NCBI GenBank assembly: GCA_965224025.1 | Contig: OZ245033.1 | Location: forward strand, 2,912,001 to 2,976,000 | Direction of reading: 5' to 3' | Source: Candidatus Multivorans sp. | GTDB lineage: Bacteria; Acidobacteriota; Thermoanaerobaculia; Multivoradales; Multivoraceae | Length of the DNA stretch: 64,000 nt | Part shown: one piece after another, positions 5,233 to 18,137 of the stretch | How positions within the stretch are numbered: the stretch's first letter is position 1 | Layout: each line of letters opens with the position of its first letter | Made by a program: the position numbers and the translations under genes | Notes under the pieces: generated by a model | Database searches by the model: none | What the model was told of the DNA's origin: nothing | Seen by the model: only the letters and a program-made list of their open reading frames with translations

Positions 5233-5384
5233 TTGGCTACCTCCCTTGCGGTCCAGGCGGCCTGGGCCGCCAGCTTACGCTCTTGCATGGAACAAGAGCT
5301 TCACCGGGCCGGTCAGGGCATCGCGCTTAGGGCCCGCGGCGGCCCCGTAACCGCGTAGAGCGCCTCGCTCGCTGCGACGCCGTA

Positions 5385-5551
5385 TCTCTGGGTGCGCGGG
5401 TCATCTGACCCGCTGCCGCCGAAGGCGGCCAGAAACACGCGCCGGCCGAAGGACGGCTCCGCGCCGACGAGAGCCCACGTTTGCCGAGGACTGCGCACGC
5501 CGCTCCGCGGCGGCGCCAGGAAGCGGGCCAGAAGGCCCGCTCACCCAGAGA
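5385..5551. repeat. REP/REPIN-like element with two inverted ~30-bp palindromic units
   Basis: tctctgggtgcgcgggtcatctgacccgct (5385-5414) and agcgggccagaaggcccgctcacccagaga (5522-5551). Same family as the repeats at 51625-52052, including the gccgccgnaggcggcc hairpin. Confidence 0.75.
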
Positions 5552-5552
5552 G

Positions 5553-6215
5553 TAGGCGATTGCGGTCCCGCCCTGGATGTGCATCGAGCCGCCGTGCGCC
5601 GAGGGCCAGGCGTAGCGGCGGTAGAGGCCCTGGCCGCGCCAGTGGAGTCCGCCGGCGACGCCGTAGAGCTGCCGCACGACGAAGCAGATGTAAGGCGTCC
5701 GGGTCAGGTTGAGCGCCGTCACGACGCGGGCGCCCGCCCTCACGATGCCTAGCCGCTCCTGCGCGGGGCCGACGGAGAACCCGGGCTCGTCGGCGAAGTA
5801 GACGAGCGGCAGGTGGAAGGTCTCGCGGAGCTCCAGCAGCCGGAGCATCTTCTCGCCGGCTGCGATGTCCATCGAACCGCCGTTGAAGCGGGGGTCGTTG
5901 CTCATGACCCCGCAGGGTATGCCGTCGACACGTGCAAGCCCCGTCACGCGGGCCCGGCCGTAGTGCGGCCCGATCTCGAAGAAGCTGCCCTCGTCCACCA
6001 CGGCGCCAACGATCTCGTAGGGGTCGTAGGTTCGGCGCCGGTCCTGGGGCACCGCGGACAGCAGCGACTCGGCTCGCCGGTCCGGATCGTCGTCCGGCGT
6101 GACCTCCGGCGGAGCCTCCCAGACGCTGGAGGGCAGGTGCGAGAGGAACCGCCTCACCTGGCCGATCGCGTCGGCCTCGTCCTCGGCCAGGTTCATGACC
6201 ACGCCGTTTCTGACC
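5553..6215 (-). pseudogene. Acyl-CoA carboxylase carboxyltransferase fragment, truncated at both ends
   Basis: RNGVVMNLAEDEADAI...VDEGSFFEIG...GLARVDG...HLPLVYFADEPGF...YAWPSAHGGSM. The N-terminal half is missing, and homology stops at GTAIAY where the REP element begins. Confidence 0.75.
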
Positions 6216-6347
6216 TGAGTAGAGAAATTGGAGAAACCCGCAGAGATCTCGTGCGAGAAACGCTGCGCAAATCGGCGACCGAAGGGACGGCGTCAACAGG
6301 GTGTTGGCGGTACCAACGGGAATTTCGCGGAATCTGGCGGGACGTTT

Positions 6348-6809
6348 CTAGGCCGTGAGGTGCTGAATGATGACGTCGACGATGTCGTCCACGTAGTCGC
6401 GCCGCAGGCCGAGGAAGGGGCGAGCGGGGATCGTGGCCTCGATGCCGCGGCCGAACAGGTTGTCGTGCTCGTGGCCGAACTGATGGGTGGCGGCATAGAT
6501 GAGGTTGGTGCCGGCGACGGCGGAGGTGCGGTCGTGGTCCGAGTCGATGCTGCGCAGGAGGTCGCGGGTGATTTGGAGGATGGGACCGTCGCGGCCTGCC
6601 TTCTGGCGCCGCTTGAGCGTGGTGTCGGCGAGCGGCGCCCAGGGCGTACCGTCCGGACTTCGCTCGTTGGCGAAGGCGTCTTCGGTGGAGGCGACGAGGA
6701 TCTCGGAGATGCGCGCCATCGCGGGGCTCAGGTCCTGGGAATCGCGGGAGAGACGAGCCAGGCGCTGCCGGATCTCGGTGTCCTCGATGCGAATGTCGAT
6801 CTGGACCAT
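6348..6809 (-). CDS. Phage virion morphogenesis protein (Mu gpG / Phage_tail_S family)
   Basis: FANERSPDGTPWAPLADTT...ILQITRDLLRSI...GTNLIYAATHQFG...IPARPFLGL are family motifs. Confidence 0.87.
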   Translation of the reverse strand: MVQIDIRIEDTEIRQRLARLSRDSQDLSPAMARISEILVASTEDAFANERSPDGTPWAPLADTTLKRRQKAGRDGPILQITRDLLRSIDSDHDRTSAVAGTNLIYAATHQFGHEHDNLFGRGIEATIPARPFLGLRRDYVDDIVDVIIQHLTA

Positions 6810-6811
6810 GC

Positions 6812-6820
6812 TGTTAGAGT
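6812..6820 (+). promoter_or_regulatory. Putative extended -10 promoter (TGnTAGAGT) firing convergently toward the MuF gene
   Basis: tgttagagt is an AT-rich match in GC-rich context, ending 4 nt before the hairpin at 6825. Confidence 0.4.
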
Positions 6821-6824
6821 CGGA

Positions 6825-6931
6825 GGTGCCAACCGGGGATTCGCGTCTGGGACTCGCACTGCTCCTGCCGCAGAAGTTGCCGGCGGATTCGGGACAGAGG
6901 CAGGCTGCTGTTCCGCACGCCGGTTGGCATC
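6825..6931 (+). ncRNA. Candidate structured small RNA at the 3' end of the MuF-PBECR gene
   Basis: Closing stem ggtgccaaccgg (6825-6836)/ccggttggcatc (6920-6931). Inner stems gggac/gttcc and cctgcc/ggcagg. G-U pairs form only on the + strand. Confidence 0.4.
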
Positions 6932-8246
6932 AAGGGCGACGATACAGCAACTCGCCCTGCCTTCGCTTGTAGACCTGGGCGTGACGAGTGGTCGTAAAGA
7001 AGGTCCAGGCGATCCATGCCTGTTTCGGCTCGATGGAAATCACCGCTGTCCTGCCATCGTCGAAAGCACCGAGGAAGTGAGGGCGCAACACCGGTCCCTT
7101 CGCTTCGGTGCCGACCCAGGTGAGCCAGACCTCGTGAGGATTCTGCAGGGCCGGCAGGATGAAGTTGGCGAACTCGGCGCGACTTGGGTGCGGCGCGACG
7201 TGCTCGACGAATGCCTGATCGATCTGGACGTCTTCGAGGCCGGCGGGAGTCTCGACGGTGAGTATTGTGCGACGCAAATAGCCGGGCCTACGGCGGCTCG
7301 GCAAACCCAGGGCGGCGTAGATGTTCGCCATCGCCTCCGCGGACGTGGCCGGTGTGGACAAGCGCACGGCGCTGAGTGGATTCGCCGGCGGCCAACCGTC
7401 GGTCAACCCAAGGTCGCTCGGTCCCCGCTGGCCCGGTGCGACTCGTCTCAGGCCGAGCCAGGGCGCGGCGCTGCCGACGCCTCCAGGTGGCCCTCCAAGC
7501 GACTGAGCAGTCAGCCCCGGCCGGTAGTTCCATCCTGGGTCAGGCGCCATGAGGCCGCGGAAGCTGGTCGTCTCCACCTCGTGGCCGCCGGTGACGGTGT
7601 GATGGACCGGCGCGAAGTCGCTCGGCCGGCTGCGTACCACCTCCAGCCCCATCCTCTGAACATCGCGTGCGCTGAGAGCGCGCACCAGACAGCGGCAGTT
7701 CCAGCCGTTGGGCGGGAAATGGGTGTCCCAGAAGGGGTCGTTGTACCGGAACACCTTGTTGTCCAGGGCTGCGTGGGAGGGCCGGGTGCGGCTGTCGTCC
7801 ATCGCGTCGTACAACCAGAAGGGGCGATCGCCGGCGTTGGACTTCATGGCCTGGTAGCGGGACGCTGCCCTGGCGGTCGCTACATTCGTGCGAAGTATGG
7901 TCTTCAGTCGGTGGCGGCTGCCGAGCTGGACGATCTCGGTTTCGCCGGTGTGGGGGTTGACGCGCTCCTGCTTGCCCCACCAGCCCTGGTCTACCAGTTT
8001 CGGCGCCAGCTCGCGCTCGAACTGGCGGAACGTCTGTCCGTCGGCGAGAGCCTTGTCGACGGCGCCGCGGATGTCCTTGAGCAGATCCAGCCTCGCCGCC
8101 TTGGCGACGGTGAACGCCCTCGCGTGCTGCTGTTGCCACACCTCGGGCCAGTTCCAGGAGATCGCGTAGCCCTTGGACCGGAAATACTCGATCGCCCGCC
8201 GGGGCGGCAGGCTTACGGCGTGGCCGAGGTTGACCTCCTCGGGCAC
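6930..8246 (-). CDS. MuF phage head morphogenesis protein with C-terminal PBECR2-like nuclease (polymorphic toxin) domain
   Basis: MuF motifs AFTVAKA, RLKTILRTN, DSRTRPSH, HFPPNGWNCRC. C-terminal EHV...RAEFANFILPALQNPHEVW...WTFF...KRRQGELLYRR resembles PBECR2. GTG start at 8246. Confidence 0.82.
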   Translation of the reverse strand: MPEEVNLGHAVSLPPRRAIEYFRSKGYAISWNWPEVWQQQHARAFTVAKAARLDLLKDIRGAVDKALADGQTFRQFERELAPKLVDQGWWGKQERVNPHTGETEIVQLGSRHRLKTILRTNVATARAASRYQAMKSNAGDRPFWLYDAMDDSRTRPSHAALDNKVFRYNDPFWDTHFPPNGWNCRCLVRALSARDVQRMGLEVVRSRPSDFAPVHHTVTGGHEVETTSFRGLMAPDPGWNYRPGLTAQSLGGPPGGVGSAAPWLGLRRVAPGQRGPSDLGLTDGWPPANPLSAVRLSTPATSAEAMANIYAALGLPSRRRPGYLRRTILTVETPAGLEDVQIDQAFVEHVAPHPSRAEFANFILPALQNPHEVWLTWVGTEAKGPVLRPHFLGAFDDGRTAVISIEPKQAWIAWTFFTTTRHAQVYKRRQGELLYRRP

Positions 8247-8247
8247 G

Positions 8248-9267
8248 TCAGGCGGCGATCGGCAGCCCGCGGTCCAGGGCCGCCCGGACCGCCCGGCCGC
8301 CGGGGCCGGCACGGTACACGGCGGACAAGTCCAGCAGATCGACAGCGGACTGGTGGATCGCCTCGCCGAGCACGGCCTCGTCGCCCGGCGTGCGCTGGTG
8401 GCGGCCGAGCAGGCGGTACGGTGCCGACATTGAGTCGCCGGCCCGGCAGTCCCAGACAGGCCGGAGAGGGCGGGTGAGCGCGGCCAAATCGAGCCCGGCC
8501 GCTCGAGCGCGGCGCCACATCCAGGTCAGCGCCCGATCGGAGAGTCCCGTGTCGGCGCGGCCGCCACCGACGTCGCCGTGCACGCCCGGGAACCAGACCT
8601 GCTCCACGACCTGGTCGGCCTGCTCGCCAGCCCACAGACTGGGGGCGAACGGCCGGCGCTGCTCGTCAATCGCGACCGCGTGACAGGCGTGACGGATGTG
8701 GGCGCCGAGGCCGACGTCATGCCAGCGCCAACGCCGGGCGCCGACCCACCGCAGGCCGTCAATCGGCACGCCCAGGGAGCCCACCGTGTCCCAGACGCCC
8801 AGGAAGCGCACGCGGGCCCGCACGGGGCTCACCCTGGCCTCCCACTCTGCGACCTCCTCCGCGCGGCGCCGGCGATAGACGCCCATTGCTGCCCGGGCAA
8901 GCGCGTAGGCCGAGTCCCGCTGCGGCGGAATGCCCAGAAGACCGACCATGCCGGCGAGGCTGCGAGCAGTGTAGGCTCCGCGGCTGTAGCCGAACAGATA
9001 GAGATCGAGTCCAGCGCAGTAGTGCTTGATCAGCCAGTGGTACGCCTCCTCGACGTTGCGGGCCAGCCCGAGGCCGACGACGCCGCCGCGGAGACGATCG
9101 AACCGGCCGGTGCCCACGCCCTCGTCGTAGTAGACGTGCGCCGGCACGAACCGCTCGGCCGCGGCCGCAGCCGAACGGGTCATGGCCACGTTGGTGGGGT
9201 GTGGCGCGTCGGCCCTGTTCCAGGTGCCGTCGAAGCACATCACGAGATTCACCGACGGGACGCTCAT
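8248..9267 (-). CDS. DUF2235 / Tle1-like phospholipase (alpha/beta hydrolase)
   Basis: CFDGTWN, YYDEGVGT, LFGYSRGAYTARSLAGM, FLGVWDTVGSLG, HAVAIDEQR, QVWFPGVHGDVGGG. Confidence 0.9.
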   Translation of the reverse strand: MSVPSVNLVMCFDGTWNRADAPHPTNVAMTRSAAAAAERFVPAHVYYDEGVGTGRFDRLRGGVVGLGLARNVEEAYHWLIKHYCAGLDLYLFGYSRGAYTARSLAGMVGLLGIPPQRDSAYALARAAMGVYRRRRAEEVAEWEARVSPVRARVRFLGVWDTVGSLGVPIDGLRWVGARRWRWHDVGLGAHIRHACHAVAIDEQRRPFAPSLWAGEQADQVVEQVWFPGVHGDVGGGRADTGLSDRALTWMWRRARAAGLDLAALTRPLRPVWDCRAGDSMSAPYRLLGRHQRTPGDEAVLGEAIHQSAVDLLDLSAVYRAGPGGRAVRAALDRGLPIAA

Positions 9268-10364
9268 GGTCGGCTCGCTTGGTGGTGGACGCCGCCAGCG
9301 TCGATCCGCAAGTCGGCGGTCGTTTCATCGAGCCACGGGATCCAAGATCTGCGGCCGCTGTCTCCGTCTACGGCCTCGCACCCGCGGGCGTCCCACTGGA
9401 TCCGCGGCGCCCTCGACACTGACCGAAGAGGCGACACGGCCTGGATTGAGATTCCCCGCGAATCGAGCCGTGCCGCGGTCACCGCGCCCTTCTGCCAGCT
9501 CGTGGCCCTGTCGAGCGCCGCGAGGACGAGCCTTCCGCGCCGCTGGATGCGGACTCGCAGGTCGCCCCAGGTGCAGATATGCGACGACACGAGCCGCGTC
9601 GCGCACCGGCGGACGGCATGCGCCTCGCCGCGGACGACTCGACACAGCCTCTCCTGGACCGGCGAGCTCAAGGGCTGTCCGCTCAGCGCCAGGACCGTCG
9701 CCAGTTGCCGGCCGGAGATCGGCCGATCGTGGGCGGCGGGATCCGTCGGCATCGGGTGCCGGCGCTCCTGCCGCCGGGCCTTGGCGGCCGCGTGGCGGCG
9801 GGCGCCCGGCCATCCGATCAGCAGGCCGAGGAGATCGGTCGCGCCGCTGCTGAGAGCGACCCACCGACTGGCCCTCATCCCAACCGGACAGAGGTGCAGG
9901 TTGCGGACGCGGGCACGGACCGGCTCGCCGCCGTACTCTCCCGTCCGGACGCCCGGTCTGGACGGCACCGCCAGCATCGCCAGCAAGTCGCACCAATCGC
10001 GGACGGCACGGGACAGAGCCACCCGATCGGCGCCCCGCTCGGCGAGCGCCGCGCCGACAACCAGCGCCGCCAGCACCCGGGCGGTGTAGGTGGGGCTGTT
10101 CCACTCACGGAGCTGCCAGCCCTCGCGCTCGTAGCGGCGGACCCACTCCACCAAGGCCTCCCAGTCACCGAGGCCGGCCAGCAGCACAGGGCGGAAGTTC
10201 ATGCTGGTGTCGCGGTCCGTCGTCCGGAGGAGCAGGCCGTCGCGCCGGCGCTGGCCGCGGCGGCGGTCCGAGGCGAACGCCTCGGCCAGGTCTGGGCGGC
10301 CGTTCGCGCGCCAGTAGAGCGCGATATCGCCCAGGTCACGAGGGCCGACCTTAGTCGCCGGCAT
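9264..10364 (-). CDS. Hypothetical prophage cargo protein
   Basis: GGAGGA RBS before ATG 10364; ATGA overlap with the DUF2235 gene; no recognised motif. Confidence 0.5.
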   Translation of the reverse strand: MPATKVGPRDLGDIALYWRANGRPDLAEAFASDRRRGQRRRDGLLLRTTDRDTSMNFRPVLLAGLGDWEALVEWVRRYEREGWQLREWNSPTYTARVLAALVVGAALAERGADRVALSRAVRDWCDLLAMLAVPSRPGVRTGEYGGEPVRARVRNLHLCPVGMRASRWVALSSGATDLLGLLIGWPGARRHAAAKARRQERRHPMPTDPAAHDRPISGRQLATVLALSGQPLSSPVQERLCRVVRGEAHAVRRCATRLVSSHICTWGDLRVRIQRRGRLVLAALDRATSWQKGAVTAARLDSRGISIQAVSPLRSVSRAPRIQWDARGCEAVDGDSGRRSWIPWLDETTADLRIDAGGVHHQASRP

Positions 10365-10427
10365 CGGAATCCTCCGGCAGGCCGTGGATCGCCACGGCCG
10401 CGTTCGCCATCATCTGCGCCTGTTGCA

Positions 10428-11978
10428 TCAGCGTGATGCCTCCTCGGCCTCCAGCCGGCCCCACACCTGGGCCACGAACAGCACTCGCGCCAGGCGCTCG
10501 GCCAGCTCGCCGACGTCCATCTCCGGCCACACCGAGGCGAGGTCCGAGAGCAGCGCCTCGGGGTCCTCCTGCGCCCGGCGCAGGACAGGCTCGATCATCG
10601 GGGCCGCCATCTCGTCCCAGGCGTCGGCGTCGATCGCCGCCATCACCTGCTCGATCCGGTCGAGCTGCCGCTCCGCCAGGTCCACTTGCGTGATGTGGCG
10701 CGACGGCCGTTGTCGCGCGCTGCCGCGCCGCGACGCAAAGGGACGGTCGGCCCACGCCATCTCGGCGTCGGCGGCGCCGGCCCCGGGAGACGTCGGCGGC
10801 GCCGGCCGCTCCTCGCCGAGCTCCACGCCGTACGTCTCCTCGACGTAGGCGTCCGACAGGCGCCGCCCGCTGATATCGACGATCAGCTTGTCCCTTTCCG
10901 CCTGCACGAGGAGGTCCGGGTCCTCCTCCTGCACGCGGCGCAGGATCGGCACGGCCGCCCCGGGCCAGTTCCAGTCGACGATCCACCGCGCGACCTGACT
11001 CCGGAACGAGTCGTGGATCAGCCAGGCGTCCGCGGACACGATCTCCTGGCGGACGTCCATGTGGATCTCCGCTTGGGAGCGCGACGAACCGTCCTCGGAC
11101 GTCATTGTCTCCGAGAGCACCACCTGGGTGATCGCGTCGTTCATCCTGCCGTAGAAGGACTCGTAGTCCATCGTGCCGCCGGAGCGCTCCAGGAGCTCGA
11201 TCGTCGTCGAGTCCGGGACCACGACGCCGGAGTCCGTGTGCAGCGCCTTCACGGCCTCGAGCAGCTTCGCCTTGTCCGCTTCGCTCGCGGTGGGCAGGTA
11301 CCTTCCGACGCCCGTTGGCTGGCCAAACTTCTCCAGCGCCACCAGCCAGAACTCGGTCTGGTGGCGCTTGAACCAGACCGGCCAGTACAGCGCGTGCCCG
11401 AGGCCGCGGCCGTACGGCTCGTCCACGTGATCCGCGCCCGTTGATGTGGTCCAGAACTTCCGGTCCGGCAGGGGCTTGCCCGCGGCGTCCTTCACCGTGC
11501 GCAGCAGCAGCCGCCACCGCGTCGCTCGGCCGCCGTCCTCGGCGCGCCAGGCGAAGCGCCGCCGGTCGCGGGGGAGGATCGCTTCCGGCACGACGTGACG
11601 GCCGTCGCGCATCCACATGACTTCCGCGACGCCCCATCCATAGAGGGTGGCGTACAGCATCTGGTCCGTGATTGCGTCCCACGGCGACCCCCCGAGGACC
11701 TCCTCGAGCTGCTCGGCCGCCATCTTGTCCCGGCGCGTCTTGCCGCCCGGCAGCACTTGCGTCTCGCGGGCGACCAGCGCCGCACGGCGCTGCTGGTGCG
11801 TCGACCAGACCTTGTCGTCGCGGAGCAGATCCTCGTACAAAATATGGTCCGACCGGCCGCGCTCCCGGAGCACACGGTCCTGCGGCGCCAGCCACCACAG
11901 ACCGTCCACCCAGCCGCGGGTGATGTCGCGGCCGCTGGTGACGCGGGCGATCTCGCCCTGGGGCGCCCTGGCCACCAT
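10428..11978 (-). CDS. Mu gp29-like portal protein (DUF935)
   Basis: ATG 11978 overlaps the terminase stop (TGATG). YGWGVAEVMW, PYGRGLGHALYWPVWFKR, EKFGQP, SSRSQAEIH. Confidence 0.9.
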   Translation of the reverse strand: MVARAPQGEIARVTSGRDITRGWVDGLWWLAPQDRVLRERGRSDHILYEDLLRDDKVWSTHQQRRAALVARETQVLPGGKTRRDKMAAEQLEEVLGGSPWDAITDQMLYATLYGWGVAEVMWMRDGRHVVPEAILPRDRRRFAWRAEDGGRATRWRLLLRTVKDAAGKPLPDRKFWTTSTGADHVDEPYGRGLGHALYWPVWFKRHQTEFWLVALEKFGQPTGVGRYLPTASEADKAKLLEAVKALHTDSGVVVPDSTTIELLERSGGTMDYESFYGRMNDAITQVVLSETMTSEDGSSRSQAEIHMDVRQEIVSADAWLIHDSFRSQVARWIVDWNWPGAAVPILRRVQEEDPDLLVQAERDKLIVDISGRRLSDAYVEETYGVELGEERPAPPTSPGAGAADAEMAWADRPFASRRGSARQRPSRHITQVDLAERQLDRIEQVMAAIDADAWDEMAAPMIEPVLRRAQEDPEALLSDLASVWPEMDVGELAERLARVLFVAQVWGRLEAEEASR

Positions 11979-12782
11979 CAGGACACCCACCCGGCCAGGC
12001 CGTCTGCGGCGCCGCGCTGACCGCCGGTGATGAACGACCGGCGCCAGTCCTCGCCCGTGCTGACGCGCCCGCCGGCCGAGTCGGCCGTCGGCGGCCCGAC
12101 CGCCTGGCCGGCCGCCTGGCAGCCGAGCGCCAGCGCCACGACGCTGTCTCCGTGGCGGCCTCCGCGCGCGGTCTGACCGGCTGGGAGCTTCGGCGTCCCG
12201 TTGACGAGCTGCACGGCGCGGTGATCCGAGAGCACGTCGGCCGAACGGGGAATGACGATCTCGCCGTCGTCGACGCGCGCCTTGTACTTCGACATCCACT
12301 CCGCCCACCAGGGCTGGGTGATGCTGACCTCCTCGATCAGCGAGCCCCATTTGTCCGCCATCGCTTCGGCCACCGCCGAGCCGGCGCCGGTCGCGTCCAT
12401 CGCCGCGCCGCCGAACCGCGGCAGACGGCCGGCAATGTGATCGAGGACCTGGAACTGCTGGGCGTGCGGCACCCGGTGCAGCTCGAGCAGGAACGGGCAG
12501 CGCAGAGCGTTCCGGCCGCCAATCTCGATCGGCGCCACGACGCTCAGGGCGATCCGGCGCGCAAAGTCGAAGCCGAAGACGTGCCGCCGCTCGAGGTCCA
12601 GCCGCTCGAGCAGCGGATCGAGGTGCCCCGTGATCCATACGGCCATCTCCACGCGGCGGACGGGCTCCGGCGTGTCGTCCCAGGCCGCCGGCGCAGGGAA
12701 CTGGATCACGGGAGCGTCGTCGGCCATGCAGGCGTCGACCTGCGCGCGGCTGAAGTAGGCGCCGGCGCTCCTGGCCGGGACG
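11978..12782 (-). pseudogene. Mu gp28-like terminase large subunit, C-terminal nuclease half only
   Basis: GFDFAR, MDATGAG and RHGDSVVALAL motifs. The ATPase half is absent; upstream sequence is antisense of the Ig-repeat gene. Confidence 0.8.
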
Positions 12783-15700
12783 CCGACGAAGAGGCAGGAG
12801 GCGACCGGGTACACGTATACGGCTACGGACACGGACGGCGACGCCGCTTCGCTCTCCTTCACGATCGAAGTGGCTGGCAGGGCGTCGGACGATGCGTCGT
12901 TCGCGTCGTACGTCGACGTGCCTTCGACGATGGCGGCGGGTTCGTCGGCGACGGTAGCGGTGCGGATGCGGAACACGGGCACGACGACCTGGACGTCGGC
13001 GGGCGGCTACCAGTTGGGTTCGCAGCGCCCGCAGGACAACGTGACGTGGGGTTTGAGCCGGGTTGCCCTGGCGTCGGAGGTGGCGCCGAACGCGACGGTC
13101 GACTTCACCTTCGCGATCACGGCGCCGGCGACGGTCAAGGGGCACAACTTCCGCTGGCGGATGCTCCGCGGTGCGAGCGGCTGGTTCGGCGACAAGACGG
13201 AGCTTCGCGAGATCACGGTGGAGGCGGACGAGTCGCCGTCGTTCGGCGCGTCGAGGATCCCCGGGCAGACGTGGGTGAAGCAGGTTGCGATCGATGCCCT
13301 GGCGTTGCCCGCCGCAACGGGCGGCAACGGCGAGTTGACCTACGGGTTGGCCGGAGACCTGCCTTCTGGCGTGACCTTCGACGCTTCGACGCGCACGCTG
13401 TCGGGCACGCCGGCGAAGAAGCTGGCGGCGACCGAGTACGCGTACACGGCGACGGACCTCGACGGCGACGCAGCTTCGCTTCTGTTCACGATCGAGGTCG
13501 CCGGCAGGGCGAGAGACGATGCGTCGTTCGTGTCGTACGTCGACGTGCCTTCGACGATGGCGGCGGGTTCGTCGGCGACGGTGACGGTGCGGATGCGGAA
13601 CACGGGCACGACGACGTGGACGTCGGCGGACGGCTACCAGTTGGGTTCGCAGCGTCCCCAGGACAACGTGACCTGGGGTTTGAGCCGGGTTGCCCTGCCG
13701 TCGGACGTGGGGCCGAACGGGACGGTTGACTTCACCTTCGCGATCACGGCGCCGGCGACGGTCAAGGGGCACAAGTTCCGTTGGCGCATGCTTCGAGGTG
13801 CGGCCGGCTGGTTCGGCGACAAGACGGAGATTCACGAGATCGCGGTGAAGGACCCGTCGTTCGGCGACGCCACGATTCCCGACCAGACCTGGGCGAGGGC
13901 CGTGCCGATCGATGCCTTGGCGTTGCCCGAGGCGAGCGGCAGCGGCGGCGTGTTGACTTACGCGTTGACGCCTTCGCTGCCGGATGGCTTGACCTTCACC
14001 GCGTCGACGCGGACAGTGTCGGGCACGCCGACGACAGCGCGGGACGCCGTGGAGTACACGTACACGGCGACGGACATCGACGGCGATGACGCGACGCTTG
14101 CGTTCACGATTGCGATCGAGGCGGCCGAGACGGACGACGCCTCGTTCGAGTCGGTTTCTGGCGTGCCGTCGAAGATCGCCGCCGGCGGCACGGCGACGGT
14201 GACGGTGACGATGACGAACACCGGCACGACGACGTGGACGTCTTCCGCGGGCTACGGTCTCGGTTCGGAGAGTCCTCAGGACAACGACACGTGGGGTCCG
14301 AGCCGGGTTTCTCTGCCGACGGACGTGGCGTCGAACGAGTCGGTCGCCTTCACGTTCACGATCACGGCGCCGGAGACGACGGGTAGCTACACGTTCGCGT
14401 GGAGCATGGTGCGCGATCCCGGGGCGTGGTTCGGGTCCGGCACGGGGGACGTGACGATCGAGGTGGAGGACCCGTCGTTCGGCGACGCGGCGGTTGCCGA
14501 CCAGACGTGGGCGCAGGACACGATGATCGATGCGTTGACGCTGCCTGAGGCGGGCGGCAGCGGCGGCGTGTTGACCTACGCGTTGACGCCTTCGCCGCCG
14601 GATGGCTTGACCTTCATCGCTTCGACGCGGACACTGTCGGGCACGCCGACAGCAGTGCAGGGACCAACGGAGTACACGTACACGGCGACGAACGCGGGCG
14701 GCCGTGCGGCGACGCTTTCGTTCTCGGTCGCGGTGGCGCCGGCGCCGAGGGACGACGCGGTGTTCTTGTCCTACACGGGCGTGCCGTCGAAGATGGCGGC
14801 GGGCGGCGCGGCGACGGTGACGGTGACGATGCGGAACACGGGCACGACGACATGGACGTCTTCCGCGGGCTACAGGCTGGGATCACAGCGCCCGCAGGAC
14901 AACGAGACGTGGGGCTTCAGCCGGGTGTCCCTGCCGTCGGATGTGGCGCCGGACGCGACGGCCGCCTTCACGTTCACGATCACTGCGCCGGAGACGACGG
15001 GCAGCCACGGGTTCCGGTGGCGGATGATTCGGGATACGGACGGCTGGTTCGGCGGCAAGACGGAGGTTCGGACGATCGAGGTGGAGGACCCGTCGTTCGG
15101 CGACGCGACGATTTCCGACCAGGCGTGGGCGCAGAACACGGCGATGGAGGCGTTGACGCTGCCCGCGGCAAGCGGCGACGACGGGGGGTTGACCTACGCG
15201 TTGACGCCTTTCCTGCCCGACGGCGTGACGTTCAACGCATCGACGCGGACGCTGTCGGGGACGCCGACGGCAGTGCAGGAGGCCGTGGAGTACACGTACA
15301 CGGCGACGGACGCGGACGGCGACGCGGCGACGCTTTCGTTCGAGATCACGGTGGCGCCGTCGTCGTCGTCGTCGTCGTCGTCGTCGGCAGCCAGGGCGCT
15401 TCCGCCTCCGGCGCCGCCCGGCGTCTTCGACATGTTCGAGTACTGGCTGCCGCCGCGCGGCAGCGCTCTGACGGTACAGGCCCGCCTTCGGGACGGGCGC
15501 ATCGCGCCGGCCGAAGGTTCGTCCTACGTTCGTTCCTTCTGGCGCGGAGACCTGTGGGGAAGGAAGGTGGCTCTCCTGGGCGATCCGAGCGGCGAGCGCT
15601 ACGACATCTTCGAGGAGGTCGAGGACGGCCTCGACTACTGGGGGACGTTTGAAGGCGCCGCGGCAGGCGGCGAAGCCGGTCCTAGCGCGGCGCTTGACCG

Positions 15701-16631
15701 CCCCTTCCGCTGGATGAACCGCCTCATGGCGGTGGGCGATGTCGTGGAGAGTCAGGTGACCGGCCGGTTGCTGTCGAACCGCAGGCGGACGCAGGAGAGC
15801 GTCCTGGAGGCGACGATGCGGCTCGAGGTGGTGTCGCATCGCGCGTCGTTCACGATTCCGGCGGCTGACGGTGTGACGTTCGAGGACGTGCTGGAGGTCC
15901 GCTTCCGGTCGGACATCGAGCGGGCGGAGGCTTACGACACGTTCTACCTCGCCCGGGGCTACGGCGCGGTGTACTCGCGGCGGTCGGCGGTGGCCGCGCC
16001 GGGAGGGGTCGTCGAGTGGTGGGCGGTCGAGAAGGCGCTGACGCCGGTTGTCCCGGCGCCGCCGCTGGTTCCGTGGTTCGATCCGTTCTCTCCGGGCTGG
16101 CCGAAGACGGCGGTGCGGAACGGCAACCTGGACGATTCCGCAAACGGGGTCGAAGGCGGGCAGGTCACGAGCTCCGAGGCGCCGGGCTGGACGGCCGATT
16201 CGGGCGACGCGGTGATCGCCCGGCCGCCTTCGGGTCTCGCCGCGGGCGCCTGGAGCATGCTGCTTCGCGAGAGCGACGGCGGGGGCGACGGTGCGCCTGA
16301 CGCGGCGATCACCGAGGAGTGGATTCCGGTCGAGGGCGGGACGTACCAGCTCTCGGCGTGCATGCGGAGGGAGAGCGCCCGAGACAACGTGTTCCTGGAC
16401 TTCGACGACGGCAAAGGCCTGGACGCGGACTTCGCCGACGCCCACCTGGTGGCTGCTTCGACCGGCACCTGGGAGTGCCGGGCGGTGACGAAGTGCATCC
16501 CCGGCTCGGTGGGGGCGGTCAGGATCCGGGCGGCCCGGGACGGCGCGAACCTGGGCGACGCCTGGTTCGACCGGATCGAGTTGAAGCGGATCGCCGCCTG
16601 CGCGGAGCAGCCGGGGCACTCGCAGCCCTGA
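12771..16631 (+). CDS. Large Ig-repeat surface protein (alternating NBR1-like Ig and He_PIG-like domains, Ser9 linker, C-terminal CBM-like domain), 5'-truncated
   Basis: Four copies each of DDASF...MRNTGTTTW...GWFG and PSFGDA...LTYALTP.LPDGLTF.ASTRTLSGTPT. The frame starts mid-repeat after an in-frame TAG at 12756, with no signal peptide; first start codon is GTG 12870. Confidence 0.78.
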   Translation: MAGTPTKRQEATGYTYTATDTDGDAASLSFTIEVAGRASDDASFASYVDVPSTMAAGSSATVAVRMRNTGTTTWTSAGGYQLGSQRPQDNVTWGLSRVALASEVAPNATVDFTFAITAPATVKGHNFRWRMLRGASGWFGDKTELREITVEADESPSFGASRIPGQTWVKQVAIDALALPAATGGNGELTYGLAGDLPSGVTFDASTRTLSGTPAKKLAATEYAYTATDLDGDAASLLFTIEVAGRARDDASFVSYVDVPSTMAAGSSATVTVRMRNTGTTTWTSADGYQLGSQRPQDNVTWGLSRVALPSDVGPNGTVDFTFAITAPATVKGHKFRWRMLRGAAGWFGDKTEIHEIAVKDPSFGDATIPDQTWARAVPIDALALPEASGSGGVLTYALTPSLPDGLTFTASTRTVSGTPTTARDAVEYTYTATDIDGDDATLAFTIAIEAAETDDASFESVSGVPSKIAAGGTATVTVTMTNTGTTTWTSSAGYGLGSESPQDNDTWGPSRVSLPTDVASNESVAFTFTITAPETTGSYTFAWSMVRDPGAWFGSGTGDVTIEVEDPSFGDAAVADQTWAQDTMIDALTLPEAGGSGGVLTYALTPSPPDGLTFIASTRTLSGTPTAVQGPTEYTYTATNAGGRAATLSFSVAVAPAPRDDAVFLSYTGVPSKMAAGGAATVTVTMRNTGTTTWTSSAGYRLGSQRPQDNETWGFSRVSLPSDVAPDATAAFTFTITAPETTGSHGFRWRMIRDTDGWFGGKTEVRTIEVEDPSFGDATISDQAWAQNTAMEALTLPAASGDDGGLTYALTPFLPDGVTFNASTRTLSGTPTAVQEAVEYTYTATDADGDAATLSFEITVAPSSSSSSSSSAARALPPPAPPGVFDMFEYWLPPRGSALTVQARLRDGRIAPAEGSSYVRSFWRGDLWGRKVALLGDPSGERYDIFEEVEDGLDYWGTFEGAAAGGEAGPSAALDRPFRWMNRLMAVGDVVESQVTGRLLSNRRRTQESVLEATMRLEVVSHRASFTIPAADGVTFEDVLEVRFRSDIERAEAYDTFYLARGYGAVYSRRSAVAAPGGVVEWWAVEKALTPVVPAPPLVPWFDPFSPGWPKTAVRNGNLDDSANGVEGGQVTSSEAPGWTADSGDAVIARPPSGLAAGAWSMLLRESDGGGDGAPDAAITEEWIPVEGGTYQLSACMRRESARDNVFLDFDDGKGLDADFADAHLVAASTGTWECRAVTKCIPGSVGAVRIRAARDGANLGDAWFDRIELKRIAACAEQPGHSQP
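12889..15386 (+). repeat. Four intragenic tandem units of ~620 bp plus a (TCG)9 microsatellite
   Basis: Units begin near 12889, 13516, 14134 and 14752; TCG x9 at 15360-15386. Confidence 0.85.
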
Positions 16632-16733
16632 CGAACCTGGGGCGCCGGCTCACGAACTGTTGTCACCGAACGACGAGTTGCGGAGGTCGATCCGGACGGC
16701 TGAAGCAGACAGCCTGGTCCTGGCCTGGTCGGC

Positions 16734-16773
16734 GCCGAGAAGTGTTGATTTGCCAACACTTCTCGGCTAACAT
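16734..16773 (+). promoter_or_regulatory. Sigma70-like promoter overlapped by a perfect 14-bp inverted repeat (operator)
   Basis: gccgagaagtgttg-atttgc-caacacttctcggc; TTGATT (16745) and TAACAT (16768) are 17 bp apart. Confidence 0.55.
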
Positions 16774-16806
16774 GCTGCGGCCATGGGGGTCAGGAGAAGA
16801 AGACCG

Positions 16807-18137
16807 ATGACGCGACTTGTCGTCGGCGCCTTGCTGTTTCTCGGCTGTGTCCCGGAAGGAGATGCTGATTGGCCACAATGGCGTGGACCGGGAGGACTTG
16901 GGGTTTCAATCGCATCCGATCTTCCGGTTGAATGGTCGGATGCGGAGACGAACACCCGCTGGACTGTCGCACTTCAAGGACAGGGCAATTCATCTCCGAT
17001 TGTCGCTTTCAACACCGTCTATCTTACAGAGGCACGACGAGAGAATCCGGGCGAGACCCCCAAGAGATTCTCCAGATGGCTCCTGGCCGTTGACGGTGAG
17101 AAAGGCGCGGTGAAGTGGGAGAAGCGAATCGTAACCACCGATGCAGAACCGAAGCACCGGCAAAACACATTCTCCAGTCCAACTCCGGTTGCTGACAGAC
17201 ATGGTGTGTACGTTATTTCGGTGCTCATCTCGCTCGTGTACTCCACGCAGGAGATGTTGACTGGCTGGTTGAGGTGGACCCGGACTACGCTGCCACTTAG
17301 CGCTACGGCGCGGCGAGTTCTCCCGTACTCGCTACGGATGTCGTTATCGTCCTGCAAGACCGCGAGTGGGGCTACGGGCAGCGACCTTCTCACGTAGGAT
17401 GGATTGCCGCTTTTGACCGTGGCAACGGCGCGCTCCGATGGAAGCACGAGTGGGCGGGCCAAAAGGGGCCGTGCTGCACATACACAACACCCCTCATCGT
17501 GGGGAGCGGACACAGAGAGCGGCTGATCGTTGCCTACTCCTGGATCATGCGCGAATACGATCCGCAGACAGGCGAGGTTCTCTGGTCATACGAGTACACT
17601 GACGGTGGGTGGGCGATCAACCAGTTGGCCTCTAGCCCCGTCTTCGAGGATGACCTTCTGGTCGTTTCGGGCGGTGCTCACGCCGTCAAGTCCACTCAGG
17701 CATTCAGCTTCGTAGCGTCGGATGCGAGCAGCAGGCCGCTGTTGCTATGGGGCAATGAGCAGGCGGTGCCCGAAACCAGTTCCCCGTTGCTGATGGATGG
17801 AATACTCTACACGGTCACGGACAACAGGACCATGAGTGCCTACGATGGGCATACTGGTCGTCTCCACTGGCGGCAGAGGCTCCCTCCGAACGGTAAGTAC
17901 CAAGCCTCTCTTGTAGGTGGATCCGGTCGGGTTTATGCGGTCGCGCCCGACGGTGTCGCAGTAGTCGAGGCTGGAAAGGAGTTCAAGCTACTAGCGAACA
18001 ATGTTTCGAATGGCGTAATCAGCAACGGATCGCTCGCCGTCGGGGCTGAGTGCTTGCTGCTGCGGATGCAAAGCACCCTTCGCTGTATTGAACGCTCAGG
18101 ATCGACGGTCGAGTCAGATCAAACCCATCCCGGCTGA
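16807..18137 (+). pseudogene. PQQ-binding-like beta-propeller protein, disrupted
   Basis: DWPQWRGP, GNSSPIV, SSPTPVAD, SSPLLMDG. A frameshift at ~17214 and an in-frame TAG at ~17298 split it into ORFs 16783-17397 and 17499-18137. Visibly more AT-rich than the flanks. Confidence 0.75.

Follow-up and report, generated by a model that had tools for sequence, protein, structure and literature searches.

A candidate pseudoknotted RNA read opposite to a MuF-PBECR2 nuclease gene in a prophage of Candidatus Multivorans

Results

The MuF-PBECR2 gene and the gap that follows it

The stretch of DNA analyzed here (the window) comprises 64,000 nucleotides from the 5.14-Mb genome (67.6% G+C) of a Candidatus Multivorans species (positions 2912001-2976000 of contig C1, GenBank OZ245033.1). 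A prophage segment within it shows minus-strand open reading frames (ORFs) in the order portal-containing, uncharacterised (9264-10364), Tle1-like hydrolase, MuF and gpG. The subject of this study is the MuF gene (6930-8312, −), which encodes a minor head protein with a C-terminal PBECR2 domain, together with the gap of 120 nt (6810-6929) that separates it from the gpG virion morphogenesis gene (Phage_tail_S; 6348-6809, −; PF05069, E 2.4e-33). With Portal_Mu upstream and Phage_tail_S downstream, the MuF gene occupies the position of a PF04233 head protein gene. A first-pass annotation had put the gap at about 120 bp, which the coordinates bear out, and had proposed that it gives rise to a structured RNA, transcribed towards the MuF gene, that could act as antitoxin, decoy substrate or cofactor of the nuclease.

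At E ≤0.01, the only families matching the MuF protein were PF04233 (Phage Mu F / SPP1 gp7 head protein; residues 80-210, E 7.3e-28) and, at the C-terminus, PF18810 (PBECR2; residues 360-458, encoded by 6939-7235 on the minus strand; E 1.5e-15; score 57.9 bits, cut-off 27.1). The C-terminal domain does match PBECR2, as the annotation had supposed; no match to the ToxN/AbiQ/CptN/TenpN class was obtained at this threshold. The ORF is listed with 460 codons and, judged by alignment with homologues, may in truth begin about 22 codons later. Two residues of the PBECR2 domain, a predicted metal-independent RNase, are invariant in 11 homologues: His371, which an AlphaFold2 model of moderate confidence places within a helix, and Thr437, which falls on the last strand. 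This placement agrees with the active-site rule in the PBECR passages of Iyer et al. (2017, PMC5512222), where PBECR domains are predicted RNases of the BECR fold, marked by a His from the first helix together with a Thr or Ser at the C-terminal end. The same passages place these domains in virion-delivered proteins and treat MuF-PBECR fusions as virion-packaged effectors; the annotation, which had seen an anomaly in the missing immunity gene, thus started from a weak premise. In the sections of Jamet et al. (2017, PMC5576092) that deal with MuF toxins, these appear alongside a class of proteobacterial C-terminal extensions to which no function is assigned.

A folded element in the gap

Read on the plus strand, the gap folds into an element of about 107 nt (6825-6931), which this fold and homology to a block found behind stand-alone PBECR2 genes (see below) mark as a candidate non-coding RNA. 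Its closing stem, P0, joins a 5′ arm, GGUGCCAACCGG (6825-6836), to a 3′ arm, CCGGUUGGCAUC (6920-6931), which overlaps the MuF stop codon (6930-6932). The stem comprises 12 pairs, G6826.U6930 among them, with a perfect 10-nt core (6827-6836 / 6920-6929), and is found in the minimum free energy (MFE) and centroid folds alike. Within P0, the fold of a same-genus alignment defines helix Pa, in which GGAUUCGC (6837-6844) and GCGGAUUC (6883-6890) form eight pairs. Pa derives from the ggattcg repeat (6837, 6885) and forms only on the plus strand, through two G.U pairs; in the alignment (columns 41-48 with 87-94) it shows one compensatory pair and several G.U pairs. A second repeat, gggac, occurs at 6849 and 6891. 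Hairpin Pb, GGGACAG / CUGUUCC, occupies 6891-6914 (arms 6891-6897 / 6908-6914; seven pairs, one of them G.U) and corresponds to alignment columns 95-99 with 114-118, where two compensatory pairs are seen.

The 10-nt loop of Pb (6898-6907) contains the sequence GGCAGG (6899-6904), whose complement, CCUGCC (6864-6869), forms part of the loop of a small hairpin, CUGC/GCAG (6859-6873). Since GGCAGG is enclosed in the Pb loop, its pairing with CCUGCC crosses Pb and makes a pseudoknot rather than a nested stem. The features listed by the annotation, namely the 12-bp closing stem, the two repeats and a −10-like box 4 nt before the paired bases, are all present. Its description of one long hairpin holds for the closing and inner stems taken singly but not for their arrangement, as the inner stems cross. 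Its statement that no immunity ORF follows the MuF gene also needs amending. The gap is in fact filled by a 38-codon frame (6814-6930, −), which opens on the MuF stop, at TGATG, and closes 4 nt short of the gpG ATG; the frame is not conserved and is probably not a gene.

No Rfam 15 family matched the element when positions 6300-7500 were searched at E values up to 10. Searches of related loci gave no match at the gathering score on 20 loci and one irrelevant match on 12 loci (E up to 1). Together with the comparisons below, this points to a candidate RNA family absent from Rfam, made up of several subtypes of one design that are unrelated in sequence.

Related elements in the same genus

The PBECR2 domain occurs in seven of 201 genomes of the order, all within the genus of the window. 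The genome under study itself contains a second, stand-alone PBECR2 gene, 53-54% identical, and four of the seven occurrences are orthologues of that gene. All five stand-alone genes, from five same-genus genomes, are followed by a nearly invariant block of about 115 nt, even though their ORFs end at differing points and the flanks beyond the block are unrelated. In the paralogue block, GCGCGCGTCGC...GCGACGCGCGC is the closing helix, AGCCTGCC, GGCAGG and CGCGAACCCCC are inner blocks, and CCCTAGCATGG stands at the end. The window gap aligns with it and has inner blocks in common (AGCCTGCC, GGCAGG, CGCGAAYCCCC); CCUGCC and GGCAGG are invariant across the window and the five paralogues. The closing helix sits at the same place with an unrelated sequence, GCCAACCGG/CCGGTTGGC in the window as against GCGCGCGUCGC/GCGACGCGCGC at the P0 position of the paralogues. 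When the same-genus alignment was analyzed with RNAalifold, the strand opposite to the genes yielded three helices that contain many G.U pairs and three compensatory ones (−47.9 kcal/mol); the gene strand folded differently (−43.9 kcal/mol), and none of its pairs was compensatory. The same hairpin, again with GGCAGG as part of its loop, recurs at a MuF-PBECR2 locus (L008) in another genome of the genus. Its loop partner, CCUGUC, pairs with GGCAGG only through a G.U pair on the opposite strand.

A BLAST search of 42 genomes of the genus with the paralogue block gave nine strong matches, of which five adjoin a PBECR2 gene. The remaining copies (L069, L071, L073 and L074, from genomes G236, G332, G349 contig 3 and G554) are 95-97% identical to the gene-linked ones. 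The surroundings were read for three of these four orphans, the G236 copy (L069) being the fourth: L071, L073 and L074 occupy one common locus, about 145 nt behind a gene for an AAA_16/STAND-like NTPase, with no PBECR2 ORF. This NTPase gene was considered as a relative of the gene upstream of stand-alone PBECR2 and rejected, the two being unrelated. The persistence of the element without the gene in cis fits an RNA acting in trans and would also allow a function independent of PBECR2.

At a further MuF-PBECR2 copy of the genus (L005, G349:C2), a tRNA-like T-arm sequence lies on the opposite strand about 300 nt past the stop codon, suggesting that this copy stands at the edge of an integrated element.

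Elements of the same design in distant lineages

Locus searches of genome and viral contigs with a single protein found no relative, and an alignment of the C-terminal region was required; it retrieved 21 loci in species-representative genomes, 2 in viral contigs and 10 in metagenomes, at 25-37% identity. Neither the window domain nor the domain of group A (see below) gave a tblastn match in 50,697 phage records, and in the order of genome G587 PF18810 was confined to the query's own genome (1 of 301). Of the first 23 loci, 19 continue with a gpG homologue. The gap measures 90-180 nt in 12 of these 19, and in the other seven further genes are inserted before gpG; the element is still found at the PBECR2 stop. 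Every locus examined has the element downstream of the PBECR2 ORF, with or without a MuF fusion and with or without gpG following, and this attachment fits a partner of the nuclease rather than a signal for the head genes. In the low-G+C loci all frames of the gap contain stops, so that a small protein is not conserved.

Groups can be told apart among the downstream sequences; every one has two hairpins, loops that are complementary, and a helix that closes the structure close to the stop codon. Group A, the best sampled, is gammaproteobacterial; its elements stand behind PBECR2 genes and have the design of the window element with an unrelated sequence. Within one order, PF18810 was found in eight of 126 genomes; among the genes are stand-alone ones of 199-244 amino acids, with as many as seven in a single genome. 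An unfitted MAFFT alignment of five group A sequences contains P0, which includes the last two codons of the ORF, as well as P1 and P2, and shows two-sided changes in nine of 21 pairs. A covariance model (R1) built on these five sequences gave 37 strong matches among the loci collected, all on the gene strand and many in tandem at a spacing of about 200 nt. In an alignment of 26 distinct rows, which was fitted to the model and so favours pairing, 90.9% of cells pair as against 79.6% after shuffling, and 16 of 27 pairs show two-sided changes (neither value was reached in 500 shuffles); controls slid along the sequence pair in at most 45% of cells. The loop-loop pairing CCUGG(U)/(A)CCAGG is invariant, with five of six pairs formed in 15 of 15 sequences. 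RNAalifold recovered only this pairing and part of P0 from a 15-sequence MAFFT alignment in which P2 is misaligned. A scan of five whole genomes with the model gave 24 copies; 23 of them, grouped in runs of 1 to 4, immediately follow a PF18810 ORF of the same strand.

In genome G634 (G634:C1:2735023-2739395; L057, L062, L063 and L065), four stand-alone PBECR2 genes stand in tandem with one to three RNA elements each, and in front of every extra element lies a leftover of the gene's last ~10 codons; in G629 one PBECR2 gene is followed by four tandem elements (L061).

Model R1 detected neither the window element nor groups B to E, indicating that the subtypes have a design rather than a sequence in common. 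In group B, four different P1 helices (GGGAGG/CCUCCC, GAGAGG/CCUCUC, CAGGA/UCCUG and AUCGCCGG/CCGGCGAU) surround one conserved loop, UCGGGG, which pairs with a downstream CCCCGA in four of four sequences; group C varies UGCGGU/ACCGCA with UACCGU/ACGGUA. The structure that the annotation expected downstream of homologues is thus present, conserved and covarying, in group A, in the genus of the window and in groups B and C. Two leads were rejected. Five viral-contig loci picked up by the group A pattern were not confirmed by the model and are taken as chance matches; a resemblance of the RNA tail to the 3′ end of 16S rRNA, seen by eye in some group A copies, is absent from the G634 copies.

A −10-like box and the strand of the RNA

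An extended −10-like box, TGTTAGAGT (6812-6820, +), lies opposite to the genes, 4 nt before G6825. From the usual distance between −10 and start, transcription would be predicted to begin at about 6826-6828. The same-genus paralogues have an equivalent opposite-strand box, TGCTAGGGT/TGCTAGGAT, in which TGnTAGnGT is kept. More generally, the approximate gene-strand sequence just past the closing helix is AGTATAGCA (complement, TGCTATACT). Among 33 distinct lineages, the pattern TGnTAnnnT was found within 200 nt after the stop in 15 on the opposite strand, at 81-181 nt, and in two on the gene strand (shuffles: mean 2.4, maximum 7), so that the convergent −10 noted by the annotation proves to be conserved in homologues. 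When the best long-range helix close to the stop was taken in each lineage, the shorter pattern TAnnnT was found 3-10 nt past it in at least 15 of 33, as against four on the gene strand, the former count being a lower bound because automatic helix choice misses several true P0 helices. The group A hexamers (TATACT, TACGTT, TACAGT, TATAGT, TATAAT, TATGAT, TATGCT) end 6-7 nt before P0 and are fixed only at positions 1, 2 and 6 (T, A and the last T). In the G634 copies, TTGACA can be read by eye 16-17 nt upstream of the hexamer.

The non-Watson-Crick pairs point the same way. All four in the window helices (G6826.U6930, G6838.U6889, U6841.G6886 and G6893.U6912) are G.U on the plus strand, as the annotation had it, and A.C on the minus strand. 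In group A, a strand-neutral helix finder counted 36 A.C against 6 G.U cells in the gene-strand orientation, and the fitted alignment 27 against 10. Taken together, the promoter and wobble results favour an RNA that would be read opposite to the nuclease gene, that is, from the plus strand of the window.

The same slot in a sister prophage and in phage Mu

A second prophage segment in the same genome (L002, C1:2263904-2268369) is 96% identical to window positions 7675-12158. The two copies differ in a cassette (6521-7675) that covers the C-terminal part of MuF, the slot behind it and the 5′ two-thirds of gpG. The sister MuF protein has another C-terminal domain, with an HExxH string, and is followed through TGATG by a 125-codon ORF without a Pfam match; gpG begins 10 nt further. 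The slot that is a gap in the window thus holds a protein gene in the sister prophage. In phage Mu, too, MuF is combined with PBECR and the G gene comes next; F (16073-17392) and G (17389-17859) overlap there by 4 nt and leave no gap. According to the part of PMC5512222 devoted to Mu gp30 (F), its C-terminal PBECR copy is inactive, with a predicted RNA-binding role, whereas the window domain keeps the invariant His and Thr.

Discussion

A tentative model

The sequence comparisons support conservation of the fold, conservation of the −10 box on the opposite strand and a tight link to PBECR2 genes, all of which would be accounted for most economically by a small RNA gene that travels with these genes. 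Our preferred reading, held tentatively, is that the gap is a plus-strand non-coding RNA gene whose product would serve PBECR2 as a dedicated partner, most likely an antidote. Such a gene would be convergent with MuF-PBECR2 and start a few bases past TGTTAGAGT. Its RNA of about 105 nt would consist of the closing helix P0 around two hairpins, with the loops paired CCUGCC with GGCAGG, and its 3′ arm would reach the last bases of the PBECR2 reading frame. If, as we infer, this RNA is transcribed from that strand and the PBECR2 domain is toxic, the RNA could neutralise the nuclease and render it harmless in the cell that carries the gene. We would expect it to bind the protein directly, in the manner of a type III antitoxin though outside that family, with pairing to the mRNA as a second choice; protein binding is favoured because the hairpin loops pair together and because the orphans have no target in cis. 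An antidote role would fit the presence of an ORF in the same slot of the sister prophage, the tandem copies, the orphans and the compact fold, and also the absence of the element where PBECR is inactive, as in Mu. What the annotation had observed is confirmed, and its interpretation is partly supported: the checks on structure, −10 box and domain, set beforehand, gave nothing contrary.

Several results weigh against this proposal. The PBECR2 model has a mean predicted local distance difference test score (pLDDT) of 62.6, and a fold search with this weak model among 48,161 chains found no solved structural relative (best VIA-align Z 3.6). The folding energy of the element is ordinary, at −51.2 kcal/mol on the plus strand where dinucleotide shuffles average −50.6 (z −0.15; 82 of 200 fold as well) and z −0.26 on the minus strand; over 33 lineages the mean MFE z is −0.53 for the gene strand and −0.68 for the opposite strand. 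Groups outside A and the genus comprise 2 to 4 sequences each, their helices having been identified by a simple finder and by eye. A two-hexamer promoter scan found no site in 6500-7300, the window box has four of the six consensus positions of the hexamer (a consensus that may not be the host's), and no intrinsic terminator follows the element on the plus strand. Some G.U pairs form on the gene strand in group A, and the strand counts given above include many cells inherited from one event, a rough estimate of independent cases being 16 to 6. Lastly, four of the nine strong same-genus copies and one of the 24 group A copies stand without an adjoining PBECR2 gene.

Alternative readings

The same plus-strand RNA might instead be a cis-antisense regulator of type I character, which would pair with the 3′ end or intergenic part of the MuF-PBECR2 mRNA, trigger its cleavage or decay and so limit, for example, leaky expression in the lysogen. 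It would be convergent with the gene, fully complementary to the mRNA between MuF and gpG up to the stop codon, and endowed with a conserved promoter and with stem-loops of the kind usual among antisense RNAs. Yet the mutual pairing of the hairpin loops would hide them from the target, the orphans in four genomes keep 95-97% identity with no PBECR2 target in cis, and runs of up to four copies fit a need for dosage better; we consider antisense regulation unlikely, though by no means negligible. Another idea is that the functional RNA is on the gene strand, as a structure of the late mRNA that would stabilise or process its 3′ end or control gpG translation. The element is co-oriented and contiguous with the ORF, whose last codons enter P0; several gpG genes lack a Shine-Dalgarno sequence and begin 3-13 nt past the motif; this strand does form a few G.U pairs, and the MFE z-scores are alike for both. 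Against it stand the four A.C mismatches in the window helices, the conserved T-A-n-n-n-T beyond P0, which has no gene-strand reading, the lack of a terminator-like U tract after the element, and the persistence of the element behind stand-alone genes, in tandem, as orphans and without gpG. A gene-strand function appears distinctly unlikely.

That the gap encodes an immunity or assembly protein of 38 residues (6930 down to 6814, −), coupled to MuF through TGATG, is suggested by the exact fit of the frame, by the 125-codon ORF that starts from TGATG in the same slot of the other prophage copy, and by a G+C content at third codon positions of about 79% (hand count), above that of the first and second. 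But group A CCAGGAAAG is read in three frames, with early stops in some copies, the same-genus paralogues offer no consistent start codon, a 67-residue version of the frame has no homologue among 5.8 billion proteins, the frame has no Pfam match, and frames of this length are common at 67% G+C; such a protein is therefore highly improbable. Least probable of all, by a little, is a role as DNA, be it as a folded single-strand recombination site like the attC of integrons, as a palindrome bound by a protein or as a scar left when cassettes were exchanged. The element does come directly after the stop codon, with imperfect dyad symmetry and with structure kept over sequence, it is repeated in tandem gene-plus-element units in G634, and it falls within the stretch by which the two prophage copies differ. 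Neither strand of the five elements tested, however, contains the attC core sites RYYYAAC / GTTRRRY, the element is bound to one gene family rather than to varied cassettes, and the loop-loop pairing and the −10 pattern would be left unexplained.

Relation to known systems

In toxin-antitoxin (TA) systems of type III, short repeats (~34-45 nt) are placed upstream of, and on the same strand as, the toxin gene, and a toxin of the ToxN/AbiQ class excises them. The present units, by comparison, measure ~105-130 nt, lie downstream, apparently on the opposite strand with a −10 box each, and go with a BECR-fold PBECR2 protein that is often fused to a head protein. The annotation had likened the locus to type III. 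A likeness does exist to toxIN, cptIN and tenpIN in the combination of an endoribonuclease gene with a structured, pseudoknotted RNA, sometimes in tandem and linked to phages, but gene order and toxin class were tested and both differ, so that membership fails.

Small RNA genes placed over the 3′ end of a toxin gene are also known from type I TA systems with convergent 3′ overlap, such as txpA/RatA and bsrG/SR4 of Bacillus prophages. The toxins there are small membrane peptides, and we know of no internal loop-loop fold in the antisense RNAs. The geometry of our locus, with a putative RNA gene laid over the transcript of the nuclease, and the conserved −10 box would be compatible with type I. 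Classical membership fails because the protein is a predicted RNase (PBECR2 proteins of 199-460 residues) and not a small hydrophobic peptide; the orphan and tandem RNA copies are a further difference. With the MuF polymorphic toxins that have a protein immunity gene, as described in the corresponding part of Jamet et al. (2017, PMC5576092), the locus has in common an exchangeable C-terminal toxin domain and a temperate phage; here the slot holds a conserved RNA fold and no conserved ORF.

A literature search, supplements lying outside it, returned no description of such an RNA beside PBECR2. If the RNA neutralises the nuclease, the pair would be unlike types I and III in joining a BECR-fold toxin to a convergent downstream RNA gene with a loop-loop pseudoknot, and the "immunity slot" of MuF polymorphic toxins could hold an RNA. 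A broader proposal, which we regard as rather doubtful, is that PBECR2 and the pseudoknotted RNA make up an unrecognised RNase/RNA module, antidote or cofactor, with a head-cluster form and a free multi-copy cassette form (1 to 4 RNA genes per nuclease), and that orphans acting in trans against injected PBECR2 effectors would provide RNA-based superinfection immunity. PBECR domains form a large uncharacterised class of predicted RNases, apparently packed in the virion and injected. A dedicated structured RNA would offer a concrete handle, as a candidate ligand, inhibitor or substrate mimic that could be synthesised for PBECR2.

Other features of the prophage segment

Upstream of the MuF gene lie the portal-containing ORF (10428-13835, −; Portal_Mu match), the ORF at 9264-10364 (−), which is taken from the ORF list and has no assignment, and the Tle1-like hydrolase gene (8248-9267, −). 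The product of the last has the catalytic domain of Tle1-like phospholipases of the type VI secretion system (PF09994, E 8.3e-67). The gene, inserted between portal and MuF, is identical in both prophage copies (the second at L002 2228-3247), and its place within a head-gene cluster is an unusual one for cargo.

The 3′ third of gpG and the 130 nt downstream of it (6217-6521) exist in three copies of 99.7-100% identity, the others being at C1:2261898-2262202 and C1:2383033-2383336. Beyond gpG, a partial carboxyltransferase domain takes the place of the protease and capsid genes, so that the prophage looks truncated. Inside or adjoining the carboxyltransferase-like ORF (5327-6202), positions 5330-5560 contain an element of ~60-200 nt that is repeated dozens of times in the genome at 75-92% identity and has the look of a repetitive extragenic palindromic sequence or a miniature inverted-repeat transposable element. 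An internal tandem duplication spans 12771-15365, where 13398-15365 is 80% identical to 12771-14747 and further offsets give 74%, suggesting repeats of ~620 nt in the long ORFs upstream of the portal domain.

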